A stretch of DNA of 64,000 nt from assembly GCF_988243305.1 (NCBI RefSeq), contig NZ_OZ547136.1. The stretch is one strand, 5' to 3'. Both the position numbers and the translations under genes were made by a program. Below the pieces are notes generated by a model. It was not told the origin of the DNA. It ran no database searches and saw only the letters and a list, made by a program, of their open reading frames with translations. Of the stretch, positions 8,194 through 64,000 are shown one piece after another (the first letter of the stretch is position 1; each line of letters opens with the position of its first letter).

Positions 8194-10344
8194 TTAGTGG
8201 TGCGAAGAGATCTTCACGCCGCCTTCCGGGATTGGAACGTACGGTGTTTCTTTGTCAGTACGTTTGTCGCTGTTACGCACCGCAAGCCAGGTTTTGAAAC
8301 CATAGAAGATGATGCTGTACACCACGATCAGGAACAGAATACTCAGACCTGCGTTGGTGTAGTTATTCACAACGATGTGGTTCATGTTGGCAATCTGCTG
8401 CGCCGTCAGGTCAGTACCGTTAGCAATCTTCTCTTTGTACTGGCTTGCCATGTAGAAGAAGCCTTCCATCTGCGGGTTGGTACTGAACAGTTTCAGGCCC
8501 AGCGCCCAGGTGGTGCAGATAAGCAGCCATACAGCCGGAACAACAGTTACCCAGATGTATTGGGTGCGCTTCATCTTAATCAGCACAACGGTACCCAGTA
8601 CCAGCGCCACGGCGGCCAGCATCTGGTTGGAGATACCGAACAGCGGCCACAGGCTCTTAACGCCGCCCAGCGGATCGACCACGCCCTGATACAGCAGGTA
8701 GCCCCACAGACCCACACAGCCCGCAGTACCGATGATACCAGCAACCAGAGAGTCGGTTTTTTTCAGGAACGGGATGAAGTTACCCAGCAGGTCTTGCAGC
8801 ATAAAGCGGCCAGAACGGGTACCCGCATCCAGCGCGGTCAGGATGAACAGGGCTTCGAACAGAATACCGAAGTGATACCAGAAGCCCATGTCAGCCATCG
8901 GCAGTACTTTGTGGAACACGTGAGCGATACCTACCGCCAGCGTTGGCGCACCACCTGCACGGTTCAGGACAGAAGGCTCACCAATGTCTTTCGCGGTTTG
9001 CAGGATCTGCTCTGGCGAAATCACGAAGCCCCAGGAGCTGACGGTCGCTGCCGCGTGTGCGGTAACGTCTTTCAGCTGCGCCATGATGATCGGCGCGTTC
9101 TCGCCACCCATTTCATGCAGGTTAGGCATGGTGATGCCAAGGCCAGCAGGCGGGGTATTCATCGCGAAGTAAAGACCCGGTTCGATGATGGACGCAGCAA
9201 CCAGCGCCATAATCGCCACGAAGGACTCCATCAGCATTGCGCCGTAGCCAATGAAACGCGCGTCGGTTTCATTAGCCAGCAGTTTCGGTGTCGTACCGGA
9301 AGAGATCAGTGCGTGGAAGCCAGATACCGCACCACAGGCGATGGTGATGAACAGGAACGGGAACAGAGCGCCTTTCCACAGCGGGCCAGTACCGTCAATG
9401 TACTGGGTCATCGCAGGCATTTTCAGTTCCGGGTTCAGCACCACGATACCCAGCGCCAGGCCGACGATAACGCCGATTTTCAGGAAGGTTGCCAGATAGT
9501 CGCGCGGTGCGAGGATCAGCCACACTGGCAGCAGTGCGGAAACAAACGCATAGCCAATCAGCGCGAAGGTAATGGTGGTGTCTTTAAAGGTCAGTGCCGG
9601 ACCCCAGTACGGATCGTGAGCAATCACGCCACCGAAGTAGATAGAGGCAACCAGCAGCACGATACCAATGACAGAGACTTCACCCACACGCCCCGGACGG
9701 ATAAAGCGCATGTAGATACCCATAAACAGCGCAATCGGTACGGTTGAGCAAACGGTGAAGACACCCCACGGACTTTCGGCCAGGGCTTTAACCACAATCA
9801 GCGCCAGGACGGCGAGGATGATGATCATGATTAAGAAACAGCCAAACAGCGCGATAGTCCCCGGTACTGGTCCCATCTCTTCTTTGATCATCTCACCGAG
9901 AGATGCGCCGTTACGGCGAGAGGAGATAAACAGCACCATAAAGTCCTGTACCGCACCGGCCAGCACGACCCCCGCCAGCAGCCACAGCGTGCCAGGCAGG
10001 TAGCCCATCTGCGCGGCGAGAACCGGACCCACCAGCGGACCAGCACCGGCGATAGCGGCGAAGTGGTGACCAAACAACACGTAACGGTTGGTCGGAACAT
10101 AGTTCAGACCGTCGTTGTTAATAACCGCAGGCGTCGCTCGCGTGGGGTCGAGTTTCATTACCTTCTGGGCGATGTACAGACTGTAGTAGCGATAAGCCAC
10201 CAGATACACCGACACAGAGGCGACCACGATCCACAGGGCACTGACGTGCTCCCCCCGACGTAATGCAACTACCGCGAGGCAGAATGCACCGATGATTCCG
10301 AGAATCACCCAGGGTATGTGCTTGAATAGTTTTTTCGTATCCAT
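8194..10344 (-). CDS. btsT: CstA-family pyruvate/H+ symporter BtsT (YjiY), 716 aa
   Basis: Multi-pass membrane protein. Sequence from MDTKKLFKHIPWVILGIIGAF matches recalled BtsT. Start trimmed to the known Met. Confidence 0.9.
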   Translation of the reverse strand: MDTKKLFKHIPWVILGIIGAFCLAVVALRRGEHVSALWIVVASVSVYLVAYRYYSLYIAQKVMKLDPTRATPAVINNDGLNYVPTNRYVLFGHHFAAIAGAGPLVGPVLAAQMGYLPGTLWLLAGVVLAGAVQDFMVLFISSRRNGASLGEMIKEEMGPVPGTIALFGCFLIMIIILAVLALIVVKALAESPWGVFTVCSTVPIALFMGIYMRFIRPGRVGEVSVIGIVLLVASIYFGGVIAHDPYWGPALTFKDTTITFALIGYAFVSALLPVWLILAPRDYLATFLKIGVIVGLALGIVVLNPELKMPAMTQYIDGTGPLWKGALFPFLFITIACGAVSGFHALISSGTTPKLLANETDARFIGYGAMLMESFVAIMALVAASIIEPGLYFAMNTPPAGLGITMPNLHEMGGENAPIIMAQLKDVTAHAAATVSSWGFVISPEQILQTAKDIGEPSVLNRAGGAPTLAVGIAHVFHKVLPMADMGFWYHFGILFEALFILTALDAGTRSGRFMLQDLLGNFIPFLKKTDSLVAGIIGTAGCVGLWGYLLYQGVVDPLGGVKSLWPLFGISNQMLAAVALVLGTVVLIKMKRTQYIWVTVVPAVWLLICTTWALGLKLFSTNPQMEGFFYMASQYKEKIANGTDLTAQQIANMNHIVVNNYTNAGLSILFLIVVYSIIFYGFKTWLAVRNSDKRTDKETPYVPIPEGGVKISSHH

Positions 10345-10691
10345 AGTAAAACCTGGCATTTTACTCGTCGTCTTTTGGCTTACAGGTGCGGCAGCTGCGT
10401 TCGTTCACCCCTGTCACTTACTGTTGTAAGCTCCCGGGGATTCACTCACTTGCTGCCTTCCTGCAAACCAAAATCCATAGAGTAATTTGTTAATCATAGG
10501 CCGAAGCCGTTCTAGGTTTGCGTTGCGTTTGAGGAGGTAAATTGACCGCTATCCTGCAGTGATGTTGCCAGAGATACGCGCGCGTAAAGTAAGGTAAATA
10601 ACTGAGTGGTTATTTTAGGGATGTAAGCGGTCAGGAATGGCGGTGAGCGGTTGGGCAAGAATTATTCATCGGGTGGATATGTGATTGAGAT

Positions 10692-10730
10692 CACAATAAA
10701 AATGCCCCTTCGACGAATGCGTGAAGGGGC
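10692..10730 (-). terminator. Rho-independent terminator downstream of hpaC
   Basis: On the minus strand, GCCCCTTC-loop-GAAGGGGC followed by ATTTTTATT, immediately 3' of the hpaC stop. Confidence 0.6.
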
Positions 10731-10736
10731 TGGAGC

Positions 10737-11249
10737 TTAAATCGCAGCTTCCATTTCCAGCATCACCGGATGGAAACGGCGTTTAAAGTAGATAAGTCCG
10801 TGACCTTCTGCACTGAGGATGATGTTTTTAATCTCCACCAGATACACCAGATGTGTGCCAATTGCCTGCACATCGCGGATCTCACCTTCAAGACTGGCCA
10901 GCGAACCTTTTAGCACCGGCTGCGCCAGCGGACCTTTTTGCCAGCATGAGAGGCTAAAACGCTCTTCCATCGCCATGCCTGTCATGCCCGCGAAGTGGCG
11001 TGCCATCAGTTCCTGCTCATGGTTGAGGACGTTGACGCACAACTTGCCGTTGCCCTGAAAAACCGGGTTCATCGCACTGTTGGCGTTAATGCACACCATC
11101 AGCGACGGTGGTGTATCCGTGACCGAGCAGACAGCCGTTGCCGTAATCCCGCATTGTCCGGCGTCGCCCTCGGTGGTGATAATATTTACCGCTGCCGACA
11201 GGCTGGCCATTGCGTCACGAAAGCGCAGGCGTTGTTCATCTAATTGCAT
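10737..11249 (-). CDS. hpaC: 4-hydroxyphenylacetate 3-monooxygenase reductase component HpaC (flavin reductase)
   Basis: 170-aa flavin-reductase-like ORF immediately downstream of hpaB; part of the colinear hpa cluster. Confidence 0.88.
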   Translation of the reverse strand: MQLDEQRLRFRDAMASLSAAVNIITTEGDAGQCGITATAVCSVTDTPPSLMVCINANSAMNPVFQGNGKLCVNVLNHEQELMARHFAGMTGMAMEERFSLSCWQKGPLAQPVLKGSLASLEGEIRDVQAIGTHLVYLVEIKNIILSAEGHGLIYFKRRFHPVMLEMEAAI

Positions 11250-11266
11250 CTTAACCTCCTGCTGCG

Positions 11267-12829
11267 TTATTTCAGCAGCTTATCCAGCATGTTGATATCG
11301 TCGTTGTTGTGCAGGTGCGGCACAGTCCAGCCGTTCTGGTCGTATTCCGACAGGCAGCGATCAACCATCGCCATCATCTTGTCCATATTGCCGGAGCTTT
11401 GTGCCTGGCGCAGACACTGCAGGCGAATCTCATCCTGGCTACCGGAGTAGTTGATTTCATACAGTTCGTGACGACCACCAAATTCGCTGCCAATAGCATC
11501 CCACATCAGTTTGAGGATCTTGATGCGCTGGACGTGATCCATACCGTTCGAACCGCGCACATACTTCGCCAGATACTGGTCGATCTGCGGATTGTTCAGG
11601 TCACGGGCACTGGAAGGGAGATAGATCAGGCCACTGGTAACGTTGCGTTCGATAATGTTTTTGATCTTCGCGTAGGCCATTGGTGCCAGTACGCGATAGG
11701 TTTGCAGTGCGGCATGATCCGGTAAATAAGCCCCGTTGACCCACGGCGTCGCTTCTGAACACATCGAGTCACTCAATGCCCAGAAGGTGTTGCGCCACGC
11801 CACCACTTCACCGAGATCGGCCTGCACACCACGGAACTCCAGGGTGCCGGTACATTCGAGTGATTTTTTCAGCAGTGCCGTAATGAAGTCGAGTTTCACT
11901 GCCAGGCGCACACAGGCTTGCAGCGGATACATACGGGCGAAACCGCCTTCCATCGTCCAGCGACGGCAGCGATCAAAATCGCGGTAGATCAGCACGTTTT
12001 CCCATGGGATCAGCACGTTATCCATCACCAGAATCGCATCGTTCTCATCGAAGCGGCTGGAGAGCGGGTAGTCGTACGGCGAGCCGGTAGCACCCGCGAC
12101 CATCTCATAAGAGGCGCGGGAGATTAATTTCACGCCATCGGCATCCATTGGCGCAACGAACATCAGTGCGAAGTCCGGGTTTTCGCCCATCACTTGTGCC
12201 GAGCCGAAGCCAATCATGTTGTAGTGAGTCAGCGCCGAGTTGGTGGCAACCACTTTCGCACCGCTGACGATAATCCCGGCGTCAATCTCTTTTTCCAGCT
12301 TGATGTAAACGTCTTTCACTTTATCGGTCGGCAAATGACGATCAATCGGTGGGTTAACAATCGCGTGGTTAAAGTAGAGGCCAGTTTCCTGAATACGGGT
12401 GTACCAGTTACGGGCGTTCTGCTCGAACTGACCGTAAAAGCCCGGATTCGCGCCCAGTGCGCAACCGAAAGCAGCCTTGTAGTCTGGGGTACGGCCCATC
12501 CAGCCATAGCTCAGGCGTGACCACTCAGCGATGGCGTCGCGTTGCTGGCGCAGGTCGTCGGCACTTTTCGCCACGCGGAAGAATTTATGGGTATAGCCGC
12601 CGCTGCCGGTGTCGGTGTTCCAACACAGAGAGTCCTGCATCTCCGGTTTGTGCAGCGCGTCGTACAGTTGGGCAACAGACGCTGCCGCATTACGAAATGC
12701 CGGATGAGTGGTGACGTCTTTCACTCGCTCGCCATAGATATAGATCTCGCGACCATCCTGCAGGCTTTTCAGATACTCTTCCCCGGTGAACGGACGTTGG
12801 GTACTGGCGCGGAAATCTTCTGGTTTCAT
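11267..12829 (-). CDS. hpaB: 4-hydroxyphenylacetate 3-monooxygenase oxygenase component HpaB (520 aa)
   Basis: 520-aa ORF MKPEDFRASTQRPFTGEEYLKSLQDGREIYIYGERV... matches recalled HpaB. Confidence 0.92.
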   Translation of the reverse strand: MKPEDFRASTQRPFTGEEYLKSLQDGREIYIYGERVKDVTTHPAFRNAAASVAQLYDALHKPEMQDSLCWNTDTGSGGYTHKFFRVAKSADDLRQQRDAIAEWSRLSYGWMGRTPDYKAAFGCALGANPGFYGQFEQNARNWYTRIQETGLYFNHAIVNPPIDRHLPTDKVKDVYIKLEKEIDAGIIVSGAKVVATNSALTHYNMIGFGSAQVMGENPDFALMFVAPMDADGVKLISRASYEMVAGATGSPYDYPLSSRFDENDAILVMDNVLIPWENVLIYRDFDRCRRWTMEGGFARMYPLQACVRLAVKLDFITALLKKSLECTGTLEFRGVQADLGEVVAWRNTFWALSDSMCSEATPWVNGAYLPDHAALQTYRVLAPMAYAKIKNIIERNVTSGLIYLPSSARDLNNPQIDQYLAKYVRGSNGMDHVQRIKILKLMWDAIGSEFGGRHELYEINYSGSQDEIRLQCLRQAQSSGNMDKMMAMVDRCLSEYDQNGWTVPHLHNNDDINMLDKLLK

Positions 12830-13055
12830 GTCGACCTCTACAGTATTAATCGGAATACGATTGTTAATTTTGTGTGTTGTTTTTGTTATTCAATTGAATC
12901 GTTGAACGCGGTTGTCGGGAAGAGACGTTTCAGGCGAACGTTGGTACTTTTCGCCAGCAAGGTGGAGTTAAATAGTAAACTGCGATCGTGATCAACTTAC
13001 AGTAAGGCAAATCATAATATTCCCCGCTAACAAGGGCTAACGGGGACGGAATTGT
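12830..13055 (-). promoter_or_regulatory. Upstream region of hpaBC (expected HpaA-activated promoter)
   Basis: 226-bp non-coding gap upstream of hpaB. Inferred from known hpa regulation; no binding site mapped. Confidence 0.35.
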
Positions 13056-13994
13056 TTATGGGGCGAATGGAATGGTAATCGTCATATTTTCATGACCAAC
13101 GACGATAGGGCCTGAATAGTTTTTCTGTGCTTCTTGCTTCCATGTTTCATCCGGAACGGTGATTGGTACCAGGTGGCTAAGGATGAGTTTTTTCACTTTT
13201 GCTTCATTGGCAATTTTGCCTACATCCTCAATAGTCGTATGGTGAGAAGCAATGGCTTTTGCCAGTGTTTTACCATTGCCAATACTGTCTGCCAGCTTAG
13301 CGACGGAGGGCTCATGTACGGCCTCATGCACAAGTATATCAGCGCCTTCTGAGAAAGTTGCCAGTGGGGGAAAGTACGAGGTATCTCCTGAGAAGACAAT
13401 TCGCTTGCCTTGTGTGTCGAAGCGATAAGCAAAAGCCTCACCGTCAGGGAAAGGAGAATGAGGAACCTTTAATGCAGTCACGGTCACGGTATCATCTTTA
13501 TAAACTACGCCTTCACCAACATCTTGAGCTGTAACGAGCTTGCGAGGATCGGGTTTTCCTTCTTCTTCCATACGCAGTGTGATGTCCCGATCGAAGACCT
13601 GCCAACTGGCAGCGGTCATGGCTCGGGTACCTGGCGGACCGAACACATGAATATTTTTGTCCTGCAGACCGCTAGCCCATGCATTCATTAAGACTGAGGG
13701 ATAGTCCAGAATATGATCACTGTGTAAATGGGTGAGTAAAATATTATCAATCTGGCGCAGTGGAATATTATTTTTTACCAGTTGTAAGCTGGCCCCGTAA
13801 CCAGCATCAATTAACCATGTTTTATTGCCAATAATAAGTGCCGTTGCCATCGGCAAACGGTCAGCTTTTAATAAAGAAGGGCCACCTTTCGTTCCAAGTA
13901 GTACAATTTTCATTTCTTGCAGTTCGGAGGCGTAGGTGAATGCCACTGGCGCAATCAGGCACGCCACAAATAGTGAGCGTAAAGATATTTTCAT
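13056..13994 (-). CDS. Secreted metallo-beta-lactamase-fold hydrolase (HLHSDH motif, signal peptide), about 312 aa
   Basis: ORF track 13056..14051. Start set at MKISLRSLFVACLIAPVAFTYA (signal-peptide-like). HxHxDH motif (LTHLHSDHILDYP). Sits between hpaA and hpaB. Confidence 0.7.
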   Translation of the reverse strand: MKISLRSLFVACLIAPVAFTYASELQEMKIVLLGTKGGPSLLKADRLPMATALIIGNKTWLIDAGYGASLQLVKNNIPLRQIDNILLTHLHSDHILDYPSVLMNAWASGLQDKNIHVFGPPGTRAMTAASWQVFDRDITLRMEEEGKPDPRKLVTAQDVGEGVVYKDDTVTVTALKVPHSPFPDGEAFAYRFDTQGKRIVFSGDTSYFPPLATFSEGADILVHEAVHEPSVAKLADSIGNGKTLAKAIASHHTTIEDVGKIANEAKVKKLILSHLVPITVPDETWKQEAQKNYSGPIVVGHENMTITIPFAP

Positions 13995-14020
13995 GTCGAG
14001 TCTCTCAGGTTGATAAATGG

Positions 14021-14914
14021 TCAGCGACCACGGAATTGTGTTGGTGAGCAACCCATCATTCGGTTGAAAAAACGGGCGAAATAGGCGGGATCTTTGTAGC
14101 CAAGATCAAGGGCAATCTGGTTGATGCTTTGCTCGCTATAGAGCAGAAGCCGTCTGGCTTCCCGGCTCATTCGTTCGAAAATCAATCTCTTCGGCGATTG
14201 ATTGGCAAAACGTCGGCATAGCTCGGTAAGCCGTGATTCACTCATACCGAGCATTGCTGCATATTCAGGGACCATTAAATGTTGGCGATAATTTTCGTCA
14301 ATCAGCCGATTAAACTTCTGGAATAAACACATCTCGCCGCGCACGCTGCATGTTGAAATATCATTTGGTGGTGCTTCACGCAGTAGGATTGTAAAAATAC
14401 TTTGCGCCAGTGATTGCAATAGAATTTCCCGTCCTGGCTTATTTTGTTGAAACTCCAGGGATATTATCGGCCAATAATGATTTAATGCCGCCAGTGTATG
14501 TTCCATTCCCTCCAGCGACAGACAGATACCTTGTAGCATTGCGGCATCTCCACTACCAGGCCAGAGCTTTTCTACCAGGGGCCAAATTAACTCCTGACGT
14601 ACGGTCAGAACATGCCCGTCGCTATCAGGCTCAGTAAAGAAAGTATGTGGCACCGATGGTGGTGTTAGTACAAAAAGCGGTGCGCGCACAGAATAGAAGT
14701 GCTCATCCAGCTGTAAAGTAATGCGTCCAGTGACCAGATAATGGAGTTGAAAATATCTATCGTGCCAGTGAGGGCGCATATCGCGTCCAAAGAAATTCGC
14801 TAACCTGGCAAATGTTTCATAATGCACATCTTCACCAGCGTAGCGGGCATCATATTCCCGGACCAAATCAATATTTTCATAACCATGTTCAAAGATAGCT
14901 TCACTGGACATCAT
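14021..14914 (-). CDS. hpaA: AraC/XylS-family activator HpaA of hpaBC
   Basis: 297-aa ORF with a C-terminal AraC-type HTH (…YKDPAYFARFFNRMMGCSPTQFR), positioned between hpaX and hpaB. Confidence 0.85.
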   Translation of the reverse strand: MMSSEAIFEHGYENIDLVREYDARYAGEDVHYETFARLANFFGRDMRPHWHDRYFQLHYLVTGRITLQLDEHFYSVRAPLFVLTPPSVPHTFFTEPDSDGHVLTVRQELIWPLVEKLWPGSGDAAMLQGICLSLEGMEHTLAALNHYWPIISLEFQQNKPGREILLQSLAQSIFTILLREAPPNDISTCSVRGEMCLFQKFNRLIDENYRQHLMVPEYAAMLGMSESRLTELCRRFANQSPKRLIFERMSREARRLLLYSEQSINQIALDLGYKDPAYFARFFNRMMGCSPTQFRGR

Positions 14915-14920
14915 GACTCC

Positions 14921-16288
14921 TTATTGCGGTTTTGGTGCGATAAGTTCAGATGAAAGAGAGTGTTCCCGACTCCCCATAGGAATTCGGGTCATGACTAACG
15001 CGCCCAGTACCAGTAATCCTGCTACAAACCACAAACCTGAGCTAAAACTGCCGGTTGCATCTTTCAAAATACCGATAAGTAATGGACTGACTGCTGAACC
15101 TACATTACCGACAGCATTGATGACAGCCATCGCAACGGCACGCGATTGCAAGCTTATTACTTGATCCGGTGTCGTCCAAAAGATAGCCATTGCGGTAAAT
15201 GATCCCATTGAGGCCATAATGATGCCGCTCAGTTGAATGAGGCTGTGATCAGTCGCAGAAGCGAGTAACCATCCGGCAGCGGCAAACAGGTAGGGAAGAA
15301 TCGTATGCTTTTTGCGTTCTTTAAGACGGTCGGAACGACGACTCCACCAGATCATGCCAAAAATTGTGCAGAATTGGGGGATGGCCGCCAGCAAACCAAT
15401 CATGATGTTGCTACTGCCAGTATTGAAACTCTGTAGGATTTGCGGCGTCCAGATATTAATCGCACTCAGAGTATTGGTCAGGCAAAAATAAGCAAGTGTA
15501 TATAGCATGATGGCTGGGGTCAGGACTTCACGTAAGGTTGAGCGTGGAACAGATGCATGGGCAAATGCACTCTCTTGTTCACGGAGAATCATCGTTTTTA
15601 AAGCCTGTTTTTCGTTTTCATCAAGCCAGGTCGCCTGGTCTGGTGTATCGTTGAGATAAAACCAGGTGACGACACCAAGAATGACCGATGGCAGACCTTC
15701 CAGCAAAAAGAGCCATTGCCAGCCTTTTAGATTCCACAGTCCATCCAAGGCCAGAATGTAGCCTGAAAGGATCGATCCCAGCATCATAGTGACTGGCATC
15801 GCTATCATAAATAAGGCATTGGCTCTGGCCCGATGATATGCCGGGAACCACCAGGTCAGATAAACCAAAATACCAGGTAAAAAACCCGCCTCAGCAATAC
15901 CAACCAGCATACGCAGTAGATAGAGTGTTTCGGGGCTTGTTGCAAACATTGTGCAGGTGGAAGCAACTCCCCAGACCACCATGATCCCAGCGATCCATCG
16001 ACGAGCGCCAATTTTCGCTAACATCATATTACTGGGGATCCCGCACATGACGTACGTGACATAAAAGAGTGTCGCGGCGAGGCCAAACATTGTGGACGTC
16101 AGGCCAAGATCCTTGCCCATTGTCAGTCCGGCAAATCCTATATTGATGCGATCAAGAAACGAAAAAACAAACAGAATAAAAAGAAAAATGATTAGGCGAC
16201 GAAATAATTTATTAATGACACGATGTTCAATTTCAACAGTTTTATTATCTTTATATTGCAGGGTAGAGGTCGTCATGATGCGCTCCAC
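14921..16288 (-). CDS. hpaX: MFS 4-hydroxyphenylacetate transporter HpaX
   Basis: 455-aa 12-TM MFS protein in the hpa cluster. Confidence 0.85.
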   Translation of the reverse strand: MERIMTTSTLQYKDNKTVEIEHRVINKLFRRLIIFLFILFVFSFLDRINIGFAGLTMGKDLGLTSTMFGLAATLFYVTYVMCGIPSNMMLAKIGARRWIAGIMVVWGVASTCTMFATSPETLYLLRMLVGIAEAGFLPGILVYLTWWFPAYHRARANALFMIAMPVTMMLGSILSGYILALDGLWNLKGWQWLFLLEGLPSVILGVVTWFYLNDTPDQATWLDENEKQALKTMILREQESAFAHASVPRSTLREVLTPAIMLYTLAYFCLTNTLSAINIWTPQILQSFNTGSSNIMIGLLAAIPQFCTIFGMIWWSRRSDRLKERKKHTILPYLFAAAGWLLASATDHSLIQLSGIIMASMGSFTAMAIFWTTPDQVISLQSRAVAMAVINAVGNVGSAVSPLLIGILKDATGSFSSGLWFVAGLLVLGALVMTRIPMGSREHSLSSELIAPKPQ

Positions 16289-52514: not shown

Positions 52515-53846
52515 ATGAGCGAACTGACCGATCTTTTATTGCAAGGGCCGCGTTCTGCCCCGGAATTGCGCCAGCGTCTGGCAATCAGTCAGGCGACGTT
52601 CTCACGCCTTGTTGCCAGAGAAGATCGGGTGATTCGCTTTGGTAAAGCACGGGCAACGCGATATGCACTGCTGCGTCCTTATCGCGGAATTGAGCGTATT
52701 CCCGTATGGCGAGTGGACGATGCCGGAAAGGCGCATAAATTCGCCGACATCCGGTTGTGCTGGCCGCAGGGAAGTTGTCTGGTAACAGGCGCAGATGGCG
52801 ACGAACAGTGGTTTGATGGTTTGCCCTGGTATTTGACCGATCTGCGACCGCAGGGGTTTTTGGGGCGCGCGTGGGGCAGGAAGTTAGCCGCGCAACTGAA
52901 TCTTACTGAAGATATCCGTCTCTGGCAGGAAGAAGATGTGCTCTACGCCCTGACCGTATTTAGCGGTGAATACACCGGCGGCTGGCTGGTCGGGGAGGGG
53001 AATTATCAGCGATGGATTACTGCACAACGCCCTGCGGCAATTCATCTGGATCAAAAACTCACCCGTTATGAACAACTGGCGCATGATGCACTGGCAGGAG
53101 AAATTGTGGGTTCTTCTGCGGGCGGCGAGCAGCCAAAATTTACCTGCTATGCACAAACGCCGTCAGGCAATAAACATGTGCTGGTTAAATTCACCGTGCC
53201 ACAGCAAACCGCGGTCAGCCAACGTTGGGGCGACTTGCTTATTGCGGAATCTATTGCCGCGCAAATCCTGCGCGACGGTGGGATCCACGCCATCGAGTCA
53301 ACGGTGCTTGTAACAAGTAACAGGCAGGTATTCCTTGAAGCGGAACGATTTGACTGCAAAGGTAACGATGGTCGCTTGCCCATTGTGTCGCTGGAGGCGG
53401 TGCAGAGTGAGTTTATCTCTTCTCCGGGATCGTGGCCGGAGGCTATGCGCCGTTTGTGTGAGCAACAACTTGTCACTCACCAGAGCGTGGCGCAAACAGA
53501 AGTGATCTGGGCGTTTGGGCGACTTATCGCCAACAGCGATATGCACGCAGGCAATTTATCATTTTATTTATCTGAACCACCATTTGCGCTGACGCCCGTC
53601 TACGACATGCTGCCGATGGCCTATGCACCAAACAGCGCCGGAATGTTGCGTGATGCTGCCATTGAGGTGAGGTTTGATCTTAACGTCAGTAAAAGTGCAT
53701 GGTTAACGGCGATCCCGCTGGCGCAGCAGTTCTGGCAAACGGTCGCCGGAGATCCGCGTATCAGCGAGGCATTTCGCCACATTGCACAAGAAATGCCGGA
53801 AAAAATCCGGCAAATCGAAGGGAAAGTTGCCCGCATGGGCGGGTAA
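52515..53846 (+). CDS. yjjJ: HipA-family Ser/Thr kinase toxin homologue with N-terminal HTH, YjjJ
   Basis: 443-aa ORF with an N-terminal HTH (…ISQATFSRLVAREDRVIRFGKARATRYAL…) and a C-terminal HipA-like kinase core (…DMHAGNLSF…). Confidence 0.88.
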   Translation: MSELTDLLLQGPRSAPELRQRLAISQATFSRLVAREDRVIRFGKARATRYALLRPYRGIERIPVWRVDDAGKAHKFADIRLCWPQGSCLVTGADGDEQWFDGLPWYLTDLRPQGFLGRAWGRKLAAQLNLTEDIRLWQEEDVLYALTVFSGEYTGGWLVGEGNYQRWITAQRPAAIHLDQKLTRYEQLAHDALAGEIVGSSAGGEQPKFTCYAQTPSGNKHVLVKFTVPQQTAVSQRWGDLLIAESIAAQILRDGGIHAIESTVLVTSNRQVFLEAERFDCKGNDGRLPIVSLEAVQSEFISSPGSWPEAMRRLCEQQLVTHQSVAQTEVIWAFGRLIANSDMHAGNLSFYLSEPPFALTPVYDMLPMAYAPNSAGMLRDAAIEVRFDLNVSKSAWLTAIPLAQQFWQTVAGDPRISEAFRHIAQEMPEKIRQIEGKVARMGG

Positions 53847-58060: not shown

Positions 58061-59293
58061 ATGTCGTCATTTGATTACCTGAAAACTGCCATCAAGCAAC
58101 AGGGCTGCACGCTACAGCAGGTAGCTGATGCCAGCGGTATGACCAAAGGGTATTTAAGCCAGTTACTGAATGCCAAAATCAAAAGCCCCAGCGCGCAAAA
58201 GCTGGAGGCGTTGCACCGTTTTTTGGGGCTTGAGTTTCCCCGACAGAAGAAAACCATTGGTGTCGTATTCGGTAAGTTCTACCCGCTGCATACCGGACAT
58301 ATCTACCTTATCCAGCGCGCCTGTAGCCAGGTTGACGAGCTGCATATCATTATGGGTTTTGACGATACCCGCGACCGCGCGTTGTTTGAAGACAGCGCCA
58401 TGTCGCAGCAGCCCACCGTGCCGGATCGTCTGCGCTGGTTATTGCAAACCTTTAAATATCAGAAAAATATCCGTATTCATGCTTTCAACGAAGAGGGTAT
58501 GGAGCCGTATCCGCACGGCTGGGATGTGTGGAGCTACGGCATCAAAAAGTTTATGGCTGAAAAGGGGATCCAGCCGGACCTGATCTACACCTCGGAAGAA
58601 GCCGATGCGCCACAGTATATGGAACATCTGGGGATCGAAACGGTGCTGGTCGATCCGAAACGCACCTTTATGAGTATCAGCGGTGCGCAGATCCGCGAAA
58701 ACCCGTTCCGCTACTGGGAATATATTCCCACCGAAGTGAAGCCGTTCTTTGTGCGTACCGTGGCGATCCTTGGCGGCGAGTCGAGCGGTAAATCCACCCT
58801 GGTAAACAAACTTGCTAATATCTTCAACACTACCAGTGCATGGGAATATGGTCGCGATTATGTCTTTTCACACCTTGGCGGTGATGAGATCGCATTGCAG
58901 TATTCCGACTACGATAAAATCGCGCTGGGACACGCTCAATACATTGATTTTGCAGTGAAATATGCCAATAAAGTGGCGTTTATCGACACTGATTTTGTCA
59001 CTACCCAGGCGTTCTGCAAAAAGTACGAAGGGCGGGAGCATCCGTTCGTGCAGGCGCTGATCGATGAATACCGTTTTGATCTGGTTATCTTGCTGGAGAA
59101 CAACACCCCGTGGGTGGCGGATGGTTTACGCAGCCTCGGCAGTTCGGTGGATCGCAAAGAGTTCCAGAACTTGCTGGTGGAGATGCTGGAAGAGAACAAT
59201 ATCGAATTTGTGCGGGTTGAAGAGGACGATTACGACAGCCGTTTCCTGCGCTGTGTGGAGCTGGTGCGGGAGATGATGGGCGAGCAGAGATAA
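58061..59293 (+). CDS. nadR: Trifunctional NAD biosynthesis / regulator protein NadR
   Basis: Start at MSSFDYLKTAIKQQGCTLQQVADASGMTKGYLSQLL (410 aa). Confidence 0.93.
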   Translation: MSSFDYLKTAIKQQGCTLQQVADASGMTKGYLSQLLNAKIKSPSAQKLEALHRFLGLEFPRQKKTIGVVFGKFYPLHTGHIYLIQRACSQVDELHIIMGFDDTRDRALFEDSAMSQQPTVPDRLRWLLQTFKYQKNIRIHAFNEEGMEPYPHGWDVWSYGIKKFMAEKGIQPDLIYTSEEADAPQYMEHLGIETVLVDPKRTFMSISGAQIRENPFRYWEYIPTEVKPFFVRTVAILGGESSGKSTLVNKLANIFNTTSAWEYGRDYVFSHLGGDEIALQYSDYDKIALGHAQYIDFAVKYANKVAFIDTDFVTTQAFCKKYEGREHPFVQALIDEYRFDLVILLENNTPWVADGLRSLGSSVDRKEFQNLLVEMLEENNIEFVRVEEDDYDSRFLRCVELVREMMGEQR

Positions 59294-59326
59294 CCGTGAC
59301 GAAACGGCTCAAAGGCGAGGTATAAA

Positions 59327-59480
59327 ATGAGTTTTTTTGATGAGTTGAAAACCTCTCTGGAAGAGGCTGTTGAGATTAGAAAGAACCTGCACGGGTGACC
59401 CACTACGAAATTGCGGATGCTAAGGCTATTCGTGAGCAACTTCATACTCCAACTGACCGGTTGCGTAGCCAGAATGCAAT
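59327..59480 (+). pseudogene. Frameshifted remnant of a small ORF (23-aa MSFFDELKTSLEEAVEIRKNLHG continuing out of frame as THYEIADAKAIREQLH...); possible decayed small HTH/antitoxin-like gene
   Basis: Good RBS and ATG at 59327, then a stop after 23 codons. A protein-like continuation lies in another frame. Family assignment is tentative; 3' extent is approximate. Confidence 0.3.
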
Positions 59481-59519
59481 CAAATCTGACAGTCTGCTTC
59501 GGCGCGCGCTTTGGTGTAT

Positions 59520-59711
59520 TTACCGGAGTAAATCAGCGTGCCGTGGAAAATTATGCGCAGCGCTTCTGCTGATTTGCGTACCTTCGCTGATGATAAGTCC
59601 TGCACTAGCGCGCTGCGCGTAATAGTCCGCCATCATGTCAATCGCAACGTCACCCGCACCGGCGCGGGAACGCGTCATCGGTGGCAGTACAAAACGGTTT
59701 ATTAATGGCAA
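59520..59711 (-). pseudogene. N-terminal fragment of an Old Yellow Enzyme / NemA-like NADH:flavin oxidoreductase gene (truncated)
   Basis: Translation ...NRFVLPPMTRSRAGAGDVAIDMMADYYAQRASAGLIISEGTQIS matches the conserved OYE N-terminus (…APLTR…YYRQRASAGLIISEATQIS…), then diverges to a stop after about 63 codons. Confidence 0.5.
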
Positions 59712-59759
59712 CGCATTCAGCGCATATTTAGCAAATTACGTAATGGGTCCCTTGCGCGG

Positions 59760-59972
59760 TTATTTGTACAGTTCGGCACTCATGGTGACGGTATTGCCCA
59801 TGCGAGCGCTGGTGATTTTGTATTCAGAGGCGTTCATCTCTTTCGCTTTCTGCGCAATAACTGCTTCCGCAGAATCCAGTGTTGTACCGGTTGCTGTCAC
59901 GCTTTGCGCCGATGCGTTAAACGCCGCGACAGAGAAAAGAGAAGCTGTAAAAATTGCGATGATCGTTTTCAT
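59760..59972 (-). CDS. DUF1471 (YdgH/BhsA/McbA-family) small periplasmic protein, about 70 aa
   Basis: ORF track 59760..60140. Start set at MKTIIAIFTASLFSVAAFNASA (signal peptide). C-terminal ...TVTMSAELYK is typical of the family. Confidence 0.75.
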   Translation of the reverse strand: MKTIIAIFTASLFSVAAFNASAQSVTATGTTLDSAEAVIAQKAKEMNASEYKITSARMGNTVTMSAELYK

Positions 59973-60129
59973 GTTTATATTCCAGAGTGTCTTAATTGTT
60001 TGGCGTTTATTAACGCGATGGGGAGAGAATACGCCTGCTGCCTGATAACATAAATGATACAAATGACAATAGACTATTCTGCTTTTGTTAATAATCAGAC
60101 GCCGGACGTTCCGACGCCTGTCGATTGCA

Positions 60130-60546
60130 TCAGGCAACAAAGTTGTCCTTCAGCGCCTTGAGACCATCCCGATAGATGCCGGTAAACAGCGCTTCGGCCT
60201 CTTCGTTCGTCACATTCACCGGGGTGAATTCACCGAACCATTCCACACGGGAAACCTGGCTGTCGGCGGTTTCATGAACGGTAATGGTGGAGAGGTAATC
60301 CACCACCGGGAACGGTGCCTGAATAATGGAATAGGTATAACTGCGTTGACGGTTATCAAACGCTTCCAGACGTTCAACCACAGTGCCGCCGTCAGAGGTT
60401 GTCAGCGAACGAACGCGACCGCCTTCTGTCACTACGCTTTTCGGGATGAACGGCAGCCAGTCTGGCAGCGCATCAAAGCCGCCCATCAATTGCCATACGG
60501 TGTCGGCAGAAGCCGGAATTTCGATCGATACAGTTGTTTTAGCCAT
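60130..60546 (-). CDS. SRPBCC (Bet v1-like / polyketide-cyclase-like) family protein, 138 aa
   Basis: MAKTTVSIEIPASADTVWQLMGGFDALPDWLP... has the N-terminal pattern typical of SRPBCC ligand-binding proteins. Confidence 0.65.
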   Translation of the reverse strand: MAKTTVSIEIPASADTVWQLMGGFDALPDWLPFIPKSVVTEGGRVRSLTTSDGGTVVERLEAFDNRQRSYTYSIIQAPFPVVDYLSTITVHETADSQVSRVEWFGEFTPVNVTNEEAEALFTGIYRDGLKALKDNFVA

Positions 60547-60571
60547 GATAATTTTCTCTTAATTTATAGGG

Positions 60572-61369
60572 TTACATTGTCAGGGTGTCGACGACGCCGC
60601 CATCGACGCGCAGGGCTGCCCCTGTGGTTGCCGAGGAAAGCGGTGACGCGAGATAAACCGCCAGATTCGCCACTTCTTCCACATCTGCCGCACGCTGGAT
60701 GATGGAGCTCGGACGTGAGGTTTTAACAAACTCATCGGCCTGTTCACGCGCACTGCGTCCCGATTGTGCAGCGGCATCCGCCAGCATCTCTTTCAGGCCA
60801 TCGGTAAAGGTTGGCCCTGGCAGAATGGCGTTGACGGTCACACCGGTCCCCGCCAGTCGTTTCGCCAGACCATGAGAGACCGCCAGATTCGCAGCTTTGG
60901 TGACGCCGTAGTTGATCATGTCGCCAGGAATTGCCACGCCGGATTCGGACGAGACAAAGATAATCCGCCCCCAGCCCTGTTCCGTCATGCCTGGCGCATA
61001 GTGACGCGCCAGACGAACGCCGGAGAGGACGTTGACGTTATAGAAGTGCATCCACTCATCATCCGGAACGCTAAAGAAATCTTTATCGTTAAAAATGCCC
61101 AGATTATTGACCAGCACATCAGCCGTTGGGACTGCAGCGATCAGCGCAGCCACGCCGTCTTCGGTGCTGAGATCGGCCACCACGCCACGCAGTGACGCCG
61201 TGGGAGTTTGTGCCGCAATCGCAGCCATGGCATCATCAACGCCGCGCTGTTTACGGCCGACGACAACCACCGTTGCGCCTGCTTTTGCCAGTCCGGCGGC
61301 GATACCCTGCCTAATGCCGGAGGTTGAGCCGCTGACCACCGCGACTTTACCTGTCAGATCCAGTTTCAT
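60572..61369 (-). CDS. Short-chain dehydrogenase/reductase (SDR), about 265 aa
   Basis: Start set at MKLDLTGKVAVVSGSTSGIRQGIA (Rossmann TGxxxGxG-type motif), 20 nt downstream of the AKR gene stop. Confidence 0.82.
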   Translation of the reverse strand: MKLDLTGKVAVVSGSTSGIRQGIAAGLAKAGATVVVVGRKQRGVDDAMAAIAAQTPTASLRGVVADLSTEDGVAALIAAVPTADVLVNNLGIFNDKDFFSVPDDEWMHFYNVNVLSGVRLARHYAPGMTEQGWGRIIFVSSESGVAIPGDMINYGVTKAANLAVSHGLAKRLAGTGVTVNAILPGPTFTDGLKEMLADAAAQSGRSAREQADEFVKTSRPSSIIQRAADVEEVANLAVYLASPLSSATTGAALRVDGGVVDTLTM

Positions 61370-61388
61370 CGTTTTCTCACCAGGTTGA

Positions 61389-62399
61389 TTAACGGGTCGG
61401 CAGCGGAGCGTTTTCCGCAACCAGATTTTGACGGCGCATTTCTGCCCAGAATTCAGCCGGAACAGGCGCATTCAGTGCAGCCAGATCTTCTGCCATACGG
61501 CCAGGACGGCTGGAGCCAGGAATAACCGCTGCAACGGCCGGGTTTGCCAGCGCGAACTGCAGCGCAGCTGCTTTAACGTTCACATTGAAACGTGTGGCAA
61601 TGGCGTTAATTTGCGCCACTTTCTGCTGGATGGCCGCAGAAGCTTTCTGATATTCAAAGTGCTCGCCGCCTGCCAGTACGCCAGAGCTGTACGGACCGCC
61701 CACAACAATATCCACGTTCTGTTCCAGTGCTTCTGGCATCAGGCGTTGCAGCGCACGTTCGTGATCCAGCAGGGAATAACGCCCCGCCAGCAGGAACGCA
61801 TCCGGCTTCGGTTCGTCCAGCGCCAGCGTCAGTTCGCAAGGTTCGACGCGATTCACACCCAGTCCCCAGGCTTTAATCACACCTTCGTCACGCAAACGCG
61901 TCAGCGCACGAAACGCACCGGTACGGGCTATGTTGAACTGTTCCAGCCAGCTGTCACCGTAGAAGTCCTGCGCCGGGTCGTGGATCCAGACAATATCCAG
62001 ACGATCTGTTTTCAGGCGTTTCAGGCTGTCTTCAATCGAGCGCAGCGTGGCGTCAGCAGAGTAGTCATTCAGAATTTTGTTTTTCAGGCCGTGTTCGAAC
62101 AGGCCACCTTTTTCACCGAAATCACGTTTTGCCGGATCTTCCATTTCGTCCAGCATGATGCGGCCGACTTTGCTGCTCAGAACGTATTCATCACGTGGAT
62201 ACTGAGACAGCGCTTCACCCATGCGGATTTCAGAAAGGCCAGAGCCGTACAGCGGCGCGGTATCAAAGTAACGCACGCCCAGGTTCCAGGCTTCGCTCAC
62301 GGTGGCGTGGGCCTCTTCTTCCGGAATGGCACGGAACATGTTGCCGAGTGGTGCGCCGCCTAAGCCAATTTTGCCGGGAAGTAAATTTTTGATGCTCAT
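61389..62399 (-). CDS. Aldo/keto reductase family oxidoreductase, 336 aa
   Basis: MSIKNLLPGKIGLGGAPLGNMF...YFDTAPLYGSGLSE...IHDP... are AKR signature segments. Confidence 0.85.
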   Translation of the reverse strand: MSIKNLLPGKIGLGGAPLGNMFRAIPEEEAHATVSEAWNLGVRYFDTAPLYGSGLSEIRMGEALSQYPRDEYVLSSKVGRIMLDEMEDPAKRDFGEKGGLFEHGLKNKILNDYSADATLRSIEDSLKRLKTDRLDIVWIHDPAQDFYGDSWLEQFNIARTGAFRALTRLRDEGVIKAWGLGVNRVEPCELTLALDEPKPDAFLLAGRYSLLDHERALQRLMPEALEQNVDIVVGGPYSSGVLAGGEHFEYQKASAAIQQKVAQINAIATRFNVNVKAAALQFALANPAVAAVIPGSSRPGRMAEDLAALNAPVPAEFWAEMRRQNLVAENAPLPTR

Positions 62400-62532
62400 A
62401 AGATGTCCTCAATTATTCGGTTTGGGTTAGGGCGTTTTTTTGCTATCGCCCTGTGACGTGGATCACAATACCTTGCGAGGTTGTGACTTGATAGGACATA
62501 ATTCGTCTGACTTAAGTCCTTTGAGGTCTAAC

Positions 62533-63420
62533 ATGATTGATTTACGCCAACTGAAGTACTTCGTGGTGGTCGCAGAAGAAGAGCACGTGGGACGCGCAGC
62601 CGAGCGATTACATATCTCGCAATCACCGCTGAGCCGCCAGATTGCACAACTGGAAGAACGACTGGGGCTGACGCTGTTTGAGCGTAATCAGCAGCGCATT
62701 CGCCTGACCGCTGATGGACAGACATTCCTTGCCGAAACACGTTCGTTGCTGACACACGCCAACCGCCTGGAGTCGTTAGGCAAACGCCTGGGACGGGGGG
62801 AAGATGGGGGCTTGTGTATTGGCTATATCGAAAACGCCATGCATTCCGGTGTACTTTCTACGGCGCTACGTACGTTACGTGTATCGCGTCCGAATGTGCA
62901 TATCGCTCTTTACAGCCAACCACCGGCTACCCAGATTGAAGGCCTGCGCCAGCGCAGTCTCGATTTTTCTCTGGTCGATACGCCGCCCACCGACAGCGAG
63001 CAGGATCTTGAATATATTCAGGTTCTGGATGATCGAATGTTGTTGGCCTTACCGCAAAATCATCCTCTGGCGCAGGAGGAAAACCTTGTCGCGTCACAAC
63101 TTGGCGATGAGCAGTGGATTGCGGTGATTCATAACGACGATGCGCATTTTCGCGATCATTTTGTCGCCGCCTGTGTTAACGCCGGGTTTAATCCTGATAT
63201 TCGCCTGGAAGCGGGTGAACCCCTCACGGCATTAGGTTTGGTCGCTGCGGGATTAGGTCTGGCCTTAATTCAACATAGTCTGCGTCATAATGCGCCGGAA
63301 GGGGTGGTATTACGTGAATTGCCGTGGATGAATTATTCAACGCAATTATGGGCAGCCTGGCATAAAGCCAACCAACGTCCGCTGGTTTCCCATTTCCGCC
63401 AGATTTTGCGCGGTGAATAA
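62533..63420 (+). CDS. LysR-family transcriptional regulator (divergent from the AKR-SDR genes), about 295 aa
   Basis: Start set at MIDLRQLKYFVVVAEEEHVGRAAERLHISQSPLSRQI (LysR HTH); ORF track extends to 62440. Confidence 0.85.
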   Translation: MIDLRQLKYFVVVAEEEHVGRAAERLHISQSPLSRQIAQLEERLGLTLFERNQQRIRLTADGQTFLAETRSLLTHANRLESLGKRLGRGEDGGLCIGYIENAMHSGVLSTALRTLRVSRPNVHIALYSQPPATQIEGLRQRSLDFSLVDTPPTDSEQDLEYIQVLDDRMLLALPQNHPLAQEENLVASQLGDEQWIAVIHNDDAHFRDHFVAACVNAGFNPDIRLEAGEPLTALGLVAAGLGLALIQHSLRHNAPEGVVLRELPWMNYSTQLWAAWHKANQRPLVSHFRQILRGE

Positions 63421-63479
63421 AACGTTAAGCGGGAACCATGAGTTCCCGCTTGATTTGAGATGTCAGTCCGCATCTGAGC

Positions 63480-63570
63480 TAATACGCTTAAAGAAAATTC
63501 TGGCTTTTCCGGGGACTAATCATTTAACTAATACCGGATGCGATGCTGGCGCGCCGCACCCGGCATTTTA
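63480..63570. repeat. REP-like palindromic sequence downstream of the LysR gene
   Basis: TACCGGATGCGATGCTGGCGCGCCGCACCCGGCAT resembles REP units; sits between convergent genes. Confidence 0.35.
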
Positions 63571-63574
63571 CGCA

Positions 63575-64000
63575 TTACTTCGCAATACGCTTGTACTTGA
63601 TACGCTTCGGCTCCAGCGCGTCTGCGCCCAGCGTGCGTTTTTTGTACTCTTCGTACTCGGTAAAGTTACCTTCGAAGAACTCAACTTTACCTTCATCCTG
63701 GTAGTCCAGGATGTGCGTGGCGATACGGTCGAGGAACCAACGGTCGTGCGAGATAACCATCGCACAGCCCGGGAACTCCAGCAGGGCGTTTTCCAGCGCG
63801 CGCAGGGTTTCGATATCCAGGTCGTTGGTTGGTTCGTCGAGCAGCAACATGTTGCCGCCAACTTGCAGCAGCTTCGCCAGATGCAGACGACCGCGCTCAC
63901 CGCCGGAAAGTTCGCCAACGCGTTTACCCTGATCAACCCCTTTAAAGTTAAAGCGGCCAACGTAGGCGCGGCTTGGCATCTCGGTGTTGCCGATCTTCAT
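63575..64000 (-). CDS. ettA: Energy-dependent translational throttle ABC-F ATPase EttA (YjjK), C-terminal part; 5' end outside window
   Basis: Translation ...VGELSGGERGRLHLAKLLQVGGNMLLLDEPTNDLDIETLRALENALLEFPGCAMVISHDRWFLDRIATHILDYQDEGKVEFFEGNFTEYEEYKKRTLGADALEPKRIKYKRIAK matches the recalled EttA C-terminus. Confidence 0.9.
   Translation of the reverse strand: MKIGNTEMPSRAYVGRFNFKGVDQGKRVGELSGGERGRLHLAKLLQVGGNMLLLDEPTNDLDIETLRALENALLEFPGCAMVISHDRWFLDRIATHILDYQDEGKVEFFEGNFTEYEEYKKRTLGADALEPKRIKYKRIAK

Follow-up and report, generated by a model that had tools for sequence, protein, structure and literature searches.

Two kinds of described bacterial system come close to the locus analysed here. 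In nemRA-gloA and in rclABC, the latter encoding the DUF1471 protein RclB, a regulator is combined with NAD(P)H oxidoreductases and no transporter; NemR is a regulator of the TetR type and RclR one of the AraC type. In the units governed by BenM, CatM, CbnR and ItcR, a two-domain LysR-type transcriptional regulator (LTTR) is encoded divergently from its target operon. The stretch of DNA that we analysed (64,000 nt of contig NZ_OZ547136.1, NCBI RefSeq assembly GCF_988243305.1; the window) carries, between nadR and ettA, a gene set that is like both kinds: an aldo/keto reductase (AKR), a short-chain dehydrogenase/reductase (SDR) and a helix-grip protein of the SRPBCC superfamily are encoded without a transporter, next to a divergent regulator that is, unlike NemR or RclR, an LTTR. 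Overall this is a real and ordinary accessory island, and the unit within it, LysR plus AKR(-SDR)-SRPBCC, recurs in several hundred species, among them Klebsiella pneumoniae, Acinetobacter baumannii and numerous Pseudomonas, with an unchanged geometry of promoters and operator. It is well supported that the island is an acquired, non-mobile segment of foreign origin, and equally well that it entered the antitoxin-like gene nadS by illegitimate recombination.

An earlier note on this DNA, made from the sequence alone, had listed a DUF1471 protein, an SRPBCC protein, an SDR, an AKR and a divergent LysR regulator between nadR and ettA. This gene set is borne out by the open reading frames (ORFs), by Pfam and NCBIfam matches and by the RefSeq annotation of the bovine Escherichia coli strain C4, which has the same genes between nadR and ettA and is 99.9% identical to the window over 58800-64000; the window is E. 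coli DNA, and several hundred further chromosomes of the species match that region at 98-99% identity. The genes are as follows.

58061-59293, plus strand: nadR, the left conserved flank (NCBIfam NadR equivalog, E 3e-239; RefSeq annotation of C4).
59760-59972, minus strand: DUF1471 gene, 70 aa (PF07338, E 2.5e-11).
60130-60546, minus strand: srpbcc, 138 aa, third gene of the predicted operon (Polyketide_cyc2, PF10604, E 9e-31).
60572-61369, minus strand: sdr, 265 aa (Pfam adh_short, PF00106, and adh_short_C2, PF13561).
61389-62399, minus strand: akr, 336 aa, first gene of the predicted operon (Aldo_ket_red, PF00248, E 8e-45).
62533-63420, plus strand: lysR, 295 aa (HTH_1, PF00126, E 2e-24; LysR_substrate, PF03466, E 3.5e-39).
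63575-64000, minus strand, running off the window: 3' part of ettA, the right conserved flank (NCBIfam EttA, E 2e-76; RefSeq).

To see how widely this arrangement is shared, AKR relatives were scanned in one genome per species, which gave 571 of them, and the best 80 loci were retrieved for counts of gene context. A LysR gene diverges from the AKR gene in 77 of these 80 loci, an SRPBCC gene follows the AKR gene in 74 and an SDR gene lies between the two in 70, the exceptions being mostly contig ends; a DUF1471 gene is nearby in nine, all of them from Enterobacterales. The hosts comprise Enterobacterales (Trabulsiella, Yokenella, Yersinia, Raoultella, Klebsiella, Serratia, Providencia, Xenorhabdus, Ewingella) as well as Acinetobacter, about 60 Pseudomonas species, Duganella and Massilia, with AKR identities to E. 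coli of 74-100% across the retrieved loci (75% for the Pseudomonas orthologs), and over 1,000 contigs of K. pneumoniae encode the SRPBCC protein. Where SRPBCC relatives are more distant, at about 55% identity, they are still encoded directly after an AKR of 336-342 aa, with or without LysR and without the SDR; since they keep their AKR neighbour, AKR and SRPBCC form the core pair, and the functional unit is LysR plus AKR(-SDR)-SRPBCC. No transporter, kinase, lactonase, dehydratase or aldolase gene is conserved beside the module in any of the 80 loci. The recurrent neighbours in Pseudomonas (a two-component system, DinB, HAD) were considered as further parts of the module and set aside, since they are missing from the other hosts and seem to reflect synteny within that lineage. 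Two database records deserve separate mention: a 1.4-kb contig of a 'Collinsella sp.' metagenome-assembled genome (JAIJJM010000794.1), 99% identical to the E. coli AKR gene and intergenic region, is probably binning contamination, and a 'Streptomyces sp. Ru62' contig (NZ_PQSU01000008.1) with a proteobacterial-type LysR-AKR-SRPBCC set, 75% AKR identity and the conserved operator reflects either contamination or else inter-phylum transfer.

The regulatory layout is equally constant. The akr-lysR intergenic region measures 133 bp and has the same geometry in virtually all loci, and the window holds the following elements in it and at the ends of the two transcription units.

62430-62451, minus strand: leader stem-loop GGGCG-N12-CGCCC, downstream of the predicted akr -10.
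62452-62467, no strand assigned: perfect CRP core palindrome TGTGA-N6-TCACA, overlapping the predicted akr -10/+1.
62465-62470, minus strand: predicted akr -10, TATTGT (TAnnnT).
62473-62502, plus strand: predicted lysR promoter (promoter scan), with -35 TTGCGA, an 18-nt spacer and -10 CATAAT.
62485-62529, no strand assigned: candidate LysR operator, AGACCT-N4-GGACTyAAGT-N7-ATTATGTCyT-N5-GTC.
60096-60120, minus strand: hairpin with an 11-bp stem just after the srpbcc stop codon (RNA fold of 60060-60135: -20 kcal/mol, z -1.9).
63427-63451, no strand assigned: terminator-like hairpin after lysR (terminator scan).

In nearly all of 78 loci the spacing is fixed: from the lysR ATG, 33 nt lead to the anchor ATTATGTC and a further 32 nt to TAnnnT, which makes TATTGT the probable akr -10. 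The putative lysR -10 CATAAT (62497-62502) is the reverse complement of the near-invariant ATTATG, which lies 33 nt from the lysR ATG. Around it, the block at 62485-62529 carries GAC/GTC triplets phased about every 10 bp and, by comparison of group consensus sequences, is common to Enterobacterales, Acinetobacter, Pseudomonas and Betaproteobacteria; we presume it to be the region that LysR binds. A divergent arrangement with a conserved operator-like block between the genes is what one looks for in an LTTR unit, and the layout is that of a classic autorepressed LysR regulator activating a divergent operon, with both start sites and binding being predictions. Given the divergence in 77 of the 80 loci, the fixed architecture and an operator conserved as far as Pseudomonas and Betaproteobacteria, there is a strong case, if one built on comparison of sequences, that LysR would control akr-sdr-srpbcc.

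The three presumed target genes follow one another closely (19 bp between akr and sdr, 25 bp between sdr and srpbcc) and are predicted to form an operon. Between srpbcc and the DUF1471 gene there are 157 bp that include the hairpin at 60096-60120, possibly a weak terminator, its U-tail being poor. Because of this gap with its hairpin, and because the gene is a neighbour in Enterobacterales only, DUF1471 is probably a separate transcription unit outside the operon. The earlier note had placed it in the regulated set; it is indeed present in the segment, and its membership of the operon is the part that probably does not hold.

In the akr leader, the stem-loop occupies the same position in every genus with differing stems, G.U wobbles included (GGGCG/CGCCC in E. 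coli, GGGAU/AUCCC in Raoultella, GGCAG/CUGCC in Acinetobacter, GGUCA/UGACC in Pseudomonas), which suggests a conserved leader hairpin. Folding each sequence separately lent this moderate support (mean z -1.24 over 32 sequences); RNAalifold did not recover the hairpin from a MAFFT alignment of the leaders, where loop lengths differ, and an Rfam scan of the segment gave no matches at E up to 0.1. The CRP core is one of two perfect cores in the window, against 0.04 expected. It is kept only in Escherichia, Trabulsiella, Yokenella, Yersinia, Raoultella and Klebsiella, sits about -50 from the predicted lysR start site and hints at a control by carbon status. A class II CRP-activated akr promoter was considered and rejected, as no conserved -10 is found at the required distance downstream of the core. 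The other perfect core (10680-10695) lies upstream of cstA (8194-10359, minus strand), a CRP-dependent gene; hpaC/hpaB-like genes (10737-12829) adjoin this core, which places an hpa cluster beside cstA in this strain.

As for the proteins, the AKR belongs to its superfamily by its Aldo_ket_red domain, which spans residues 10-322; a putative catalytic tetrad Asp-Tyr-Lys-His (D46, Y51, K77 and H140) can be read by pattern from the translation at the expected motifs FDTAPLYG, SSKVG and WIHDP. The protein reaches no NCBIfam equivalog (best, YdjG, 71 bits against a cutoff of 550). The SDR is of the classical type, its Gly-rich cofactor motif and its Ser...Tyr-x3-Lys catalytic residues being visible (SGSTSGIRQG, VSSESG and YGVTK), and after strand beta-2 it reads VVVVGRK, with a basic residue and no Asp. 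By the Kallberg-Persson rule Arg or Lys after beta-2 marks the NADP(H) type, and the motif thus indicates an NADP(H)-dependent SDR as far as a signature can. Among solved structures, this protein has an ortholog in A. baumannii 8G9M (E 2e-136) and a clear homolog in B. anthracis 3T4X (E 2e-69).

The SRPBCC protein was modelled by AlphaFold with high confidence (predicted local distance difference test score of 98) as the helix-grip fold of its superfamily, with seven strands and a helix at 114-137. It shares 60-61% identity and a template modelling (TM) score of 0.97 with B. cereus 'XoxI' (3CNW) and B. thuringiensis 3F08; its next fold neighbours are the PYR/PYL small-molecule receptors (TM about 0.85, 19-27% identity), and W18, R46, Y72 and W103 do not vary among 40 diverse members of the family. 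Membership of the Rv0910-type toxins is not indicated, as the match reaches 20.8 bits against a cutoff of 100, covers residues 1-33 only, and the neighbours are oxidoreductases. The LysR protein has ItcR (7W06, E 5e-37) as its nearest solved relative, together with BenM/CatM (E 1e-30) and CbnR, and stays below all NCBIfam equivalog cutoffs (AlsR, 224 bits against 430; PRK09986, 209 against 290). The DUF1471 protein combines PF07338 with an N-terminus, MKTIIAIFTASLFSVAAFNASA, that reads as a signal peptide, hydrophobic and ending in ASA, which places it in the YdgH/BhsA/McbA family of periplasmic stress proteins; its weak matches to BhsA, RclB and YhcN remain below the cutoffs for BhsA, RclB, YhcN and YbiJ. 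None of the five island proteins matched a PADLOC model of anti-phage defence.

With moderate confidence, we consider it most plausible that the module, induced through LysR, serves to reduce a membrane-permeant, lipophilic carbonyl compound at the expense of NADPH. LysR would bind the operator that overlaps its own promoter just upstream of the akr promoter and so repress itself, and, with a small inducer, would activate akr-sdr-srpbcc. The inducer would probably carry a carbonyl or carboxylate group and need no transporter of its own to enter the cell. AKR and the NADP(H)-type SDR would then reduce the carbonyl group or groups of a lipophilic aldehyde, ketone, enone or quinone, and the SRPBCC protein may bind the compound in a hydrophobic pocket lined by W18, R46, Y72 and W103 and either present it to the AKR or catalyse an accessory isomerisation. 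In enteric bacteria cAMP-CRP may further modulate the promoter. What favours reduction is the lack of transporter and downstream catabolic genes, taken together with an NADPH-type SDR, a fold that holds hydrophobic ligands and the OYE (Old Yellow Enzyme) and DUF1471 neighbours in enterics. Detoxification of carbonyls or quinones, which the earlier note had suggested, is put forward here too as a hypothesis.

Several observations weigh against such a reductive role. The best solved matches of the AKR are plant NAD+-dependent L-galactose dehydrogenases (E 2e-29 to 2e-22), and for the SDR, sorbose reductase and 3-hydroxybutyrate dehydrogenases come nearest among characterised enzymes (PMC10889901). 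Perfect CRP cores are met more typically at catabolic promoters. An ene-reductase step is not required, since E. coli and E. whittamii lost the function of the OYE gene in separate events (see below). Moreover, the searched literature gave no substrate, inducer or phenotype for any ortholog, and start sites, LysR binding and operon organisation are each a matter of prediction. A catabolic role has in its favour the sugar-dehydrogenase-like relatives, the CRP core and the kinship of LysR with sensors of organic acids.

Such a role would make the module one of catabolism or peripheral metabolism under LysR induction and CRP control, in which the AKR would oxidise aldoses or alcohols as a 1-dehydrogenase, the SDR would act as a dehydrogenase of polyols or hydroxy acids, and the two would pass a sugar-like or hydroxy-acid compound on to central metabolism. 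Besides the relatives of AKR and SDR just named and the perfect core on the akr promoter of enterics, it can draw on the closest solved relatives of LysR, which are sensors of organic acids (itaconate for ItcR, benzoate and muconate for BenM and CatM). The similarity of the AKR to sugar dehydrogenases is, however, weak and mostly N-terminal (the best-scoring aligned stretches between the AKR and the L-galactose dehydrogenases cover about residues 10-81 only), the SDR signature is of the NADP(H) type, and the hydrophobic-pocket SRPBCC protein is left without an explained role. Furthermore, the 80 loci have no conserved gene for a transporter, kinase, lactonase, dehydratase or aldolase beside the module. 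The CRP core is missing outside Enterobacteriaceae and Yersinia, and from its place across the predicted akr -10/+1 one would expect repression, not activation. Taking these points together, we regard catabolism as unlikely.

A more ambitious reading, to our minds rather unlikely, would see AKR-SRPBCC, with its LysR sensor and an optional SDR, as an unrecognised two-protein enzyme system for one specific and widespread lipophilic molecule, the helix-grip protein being a catalytic or channelling partner. The pair could then be compared with poppy, where a PR10-type isomerase works with codeinone reductase. If true, the island would be a horizontally exchanged copy giving about 9% of strains a defined chemical capability.

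Narrower still is the idea that AKR-SRPBCC inactivates or converts one specific lipophilic signal or defence molecule of plant, host or microbial origin, with SRPBCC as its catalytic partner, an isomerase or cyclase. No part of the module is better conserved than the pairing of AKR with SRPBCC, and the AKR itself is extremely conserved; in the SRPBCC family, W, R, Y and W residues are invariant, and in type they would match those essential in the pockets of SRPBCC aromatase/cyclases. Its fold is nearest to the PYR/PYL abscisic-acid receptors, and the 61% SRPBCC identity between E. coli and Bacillus argues for a single defined ligand. The argument is nonetheless drawn purely from structure and context, and the habitats of the hosts (gut, soil, insects) are very different, which speaks against one niche-specific signal. 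A signal-modifying role thus seems to us decidedly unlikely, and reduction of a lipophilic carbonyl compound remains the reading that we prefer.

Turning to the origin of the segment, where the earlier note saw an insertion between two adjacent genes, comparison of the junctions with island-free alleles places the island inside nadS. Pairwise and multiple alignments against HB101 (K-12-type), strain 104 and strain 2/0, and further against IAI39, put the junctions at about 59441/59442 on the left and at 63487/63488 on the right, so that 4,046 bp of inserted DNA (59442-63487) stand in place of 116 bp of central nadS. Around and within these edges we find the following.

59327-59441, plus strand: nadS 5' remnant, its frame shifted by a 10-bp deletion (alignment to 104 and HB101; RefSeq 'NadS family protein, frameshifted').
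59442-59496, no strand assigned: left filler of 55 bp, without homology to nadS alleles or donor-like loci.
59497-59741, minus strand: OYE pseudogene of the NemA/SYE1-type alkene reductases (Pfam Oxidored_FMN and NCBIfam NemA; alignment to the intact gene of genome E69).
63454-63487, no strand assigned: right filler of 34 bp, as delimited by the alignments at the right junction.
63488-63519, plus strand: nadS 3' remnant with the stop codon (alignment to strain 104 nadS).

The decayed fragments that the earlier note saw at the nadR edge are therefore real and correspond to the nadS 5' remnant and the OYE pseudogene. At least five alleles of the nadR-ettA gap exist in E. coli, and the gap is a hot spot by its behaviour: strain 104 keeps both a relE/parE-family toxin gene and nadS intact between nadR and ettA; IAI39 has an intact nadS without the toxin gene; HB101 has nadR, a 108-nt nadS pseudogene and ettA, with only about 300 bp between nadR and ettA; in strain 2/0 the gap is empty; and the fifth allele is the island. 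nadS is the antitoxin-like helix-turn-helix (HTH) gene of a decayed relE/parE-nadS pair. In strain 104, the NadS protein of which matches the NadS equivalog (E 1e-54) and, weakly, a generic HTH model in PADLOC, the toxin-antitoxin pair is intact; the window has lost the toxin gene, and its nadS is in two pieces with a shifted frame. Since the toxin gene is gone apart from its final ~30 nt, as in K-12 and IAI39, the recipient of the island was likely an orphan-nadS allele. The nadS remnant of K-12 is expressed according to PIRT-Seq (PMC12350097).

The segment shows none of the hallmarks of a mobile element, be it an integrase or transposase, a tRNA or att site, or flanking repeats. The earlier note had already reported an absence of mobility genes, and we can add that neither a transposase, an integrase nor a tRNA gene appears in the ORF list or the RefSeq annotation of the segment, that no direct or inverted repeats were found at its ends and that its base composition is in no way distinctive. 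It is accessory rather than universal core, as the earlier note had proposed: a search with the island sequence alone found it in 482 of 5,426 complete E. coli genomes (8.9%), each time as one chromosomal copy of 98.1-99.9% identity and never on a plasmid, short nadS-like fragments being the sole matches in the plasmid search. K-12, BL21, Nissle 1917, O157:H7, 042, IAI39 and SMS-3-5 do not carry it.

A donor-like copy is found in genome E69 (CP089930.1), where the module follows yhiN. The core flanks there (uspA-uspB-pitA-yhiN) are only about 92% identical to E. coli, from which we conclude that E69, labelled E. coli, belongs to a cryptic Escherichia lineage. The island shares 97.7% identity with this copy over 59497-63451, the homology ending on the right just past the lysR terminator hairpin. 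In E. whittamii the module lies after glyQS, and in Serratia it lies beside yhiN-pitA-uspB in inverted orientation. With at least three chromosomal sites in Escherichia, the module has moved without recognisable mobility functions, and the same module at three loci means that chromosomal modules can pass between Escherichia species in this way. E69 also has, beyond the module and the OYE gene, a ProA/Hhe-like anti-phage helicase gene (11523-14987 of the retrieved CP089930.1 stretch).

It might be held instead that the segment is ancestral E. coli core DNA since lost from most lineages, K-12 included, given that its diversity within E. coli (98.1-99.9%) resembles that of the flanking core (about 97-98%) and suggests long residence. 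This is very unlikely, as IAI39 has an intact nadS and strain 104 an intact toxin gene and nadS at the very point that the island interrupts, which makes the insertion the derived state. In addition, the 97.7% identity between island and E69 is far above the roughly 92% between the two core genomes, and the module sits at other loci in other Escherichia species. Against K-12 and strain 104, the core genes on either side of the island differ by an even 2-3%. With flank identity so uniform, at about 97-98%, no special tract stands out, and the idea that recombination had left one around the island was rejected.

The left edge of the island is where decay is evident. A 63-aa ORF (59520-59711) resembles the N-terminus of NemA-type OYEs, and an intact OYE gene of the SYE1/NemA type (365 aa) follows the module in E69. 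Against that gene, the copy in the window has its start ATG changed to ACG and a stop at codon 2, has lost 686 bp internally between 59567 and 59568 and lacks its final 167 nt at the island edge. The copy in E. whittamii has an internal deletion differing from the one in E. coli, and a deletion common to the two was rejected on alignment, which shows different, independent events. The 55-bp left filler is common to island variants and confined to island-bearing E. coli genomes. Between it and a slightly longer OYE remnant, two genomes hold extra cargo at the left edge: a TauE/SafE exporter gene with a winged helix-turn-helix gene in GPEC1185 (661-2241 of the retrieved locus) and a GNAT acetyltransferase gene in F344 (about 661-1386 of the retrieved locus). 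Some other E. coli carriers of the island have IS1397 or IS200C insertions.

The island genes themselves are a different matter. AKR, the most conserved gene of the module, has synonymous and non-synonymous codon differences in ratios of 17:0 against E69, 15:0 against E. whittamii, 73:10 against Trabulsiella and 120:16 against Yokenella, and synonymous changes are far above non-synonymous ones in all five island genes, which speaks for strong purifying selection on each of them. That they might be decaying, non-functional hitch-hikers like the OYE and nadS fragments, as their position between two pseudogenes could suggest, is effectively refuted by these ratios (17:0, 73:10 and 120:16). All five ORFs are also intact in the window, in every RefSeq record opened and, by product name, in about 65 listed of the 482 island-bearing records.

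Elsewhere in the window, a 443-aa ORF (52515-53846) between deoD and lplA is a further presence/absence polymorphism; HB101, 104, IAI39, 042 and SMS-3-5 have only a short HTH-domain gene in that gap.

How, then, does the island compare with what has been described? The searched literature describes neither the island nor the module; what it yielded was the structure paper for 8G9M and the note on nadS expression in K-12. The island SDR has its ortholog in A. baumannii 8G9M, and a clear homolog in B. anthracis 3T4X; neither structure has been given a substrate, and the authors of 8G9M call its substrate unknown and do not discuss the gene context of the module (PMC10889901). The helix-grip fold of the SRPBCC protein is that of 3CNW and 3F08, both structural-genomics entries without function, so crystal structures exist for an ortholog of the SDR and for homologs of the SRPBCC protein, yet they are without assigned function. 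Unlike for PYR/PYL, nothing points to a phosphatase partner for the island protein. In the case of the AKR, the branch of plant L-galactose dehydrogenase and aldose 1-dehydrogenase holds the best solved matches, and membership at that level is unsupported. A conserved regulator with its operator makes the module, which many bacteria of clinical and environmental importance share, directly testable, and such a test could assign functions to all of its proteins together.

Annotated automatically in hundreds of RefSeq genomes, the island is of a familiar kind, a LysR-regulated oxidoreductase operon in a strain-variable region. Like nemRA-gloA and rclABC, with their NemA-type OYE and DUF1471 genes, the enterobacterial copies of the module adjoin genes for just such proteins. 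In contrast to nemRA, however, the OYE gene no longer functions in E. coli and was disabled by a separate event in E. whittamii, and in contrast to rclABC, the island DUF1471 protein is far below the RclB, BhsA and YhcN cutoffs. The closer parallel in regulation is with the BenM/CatM/CbnR/ItcR units, as here too the operator is predicted to overlap the promoter of its own regulator just upstream of the target -10. The BenM/CatM box is ATAC-N7-GTAT, whereas the candidate operator of the module is built of GAC/GTC triplets in a phase of about 10 bp.

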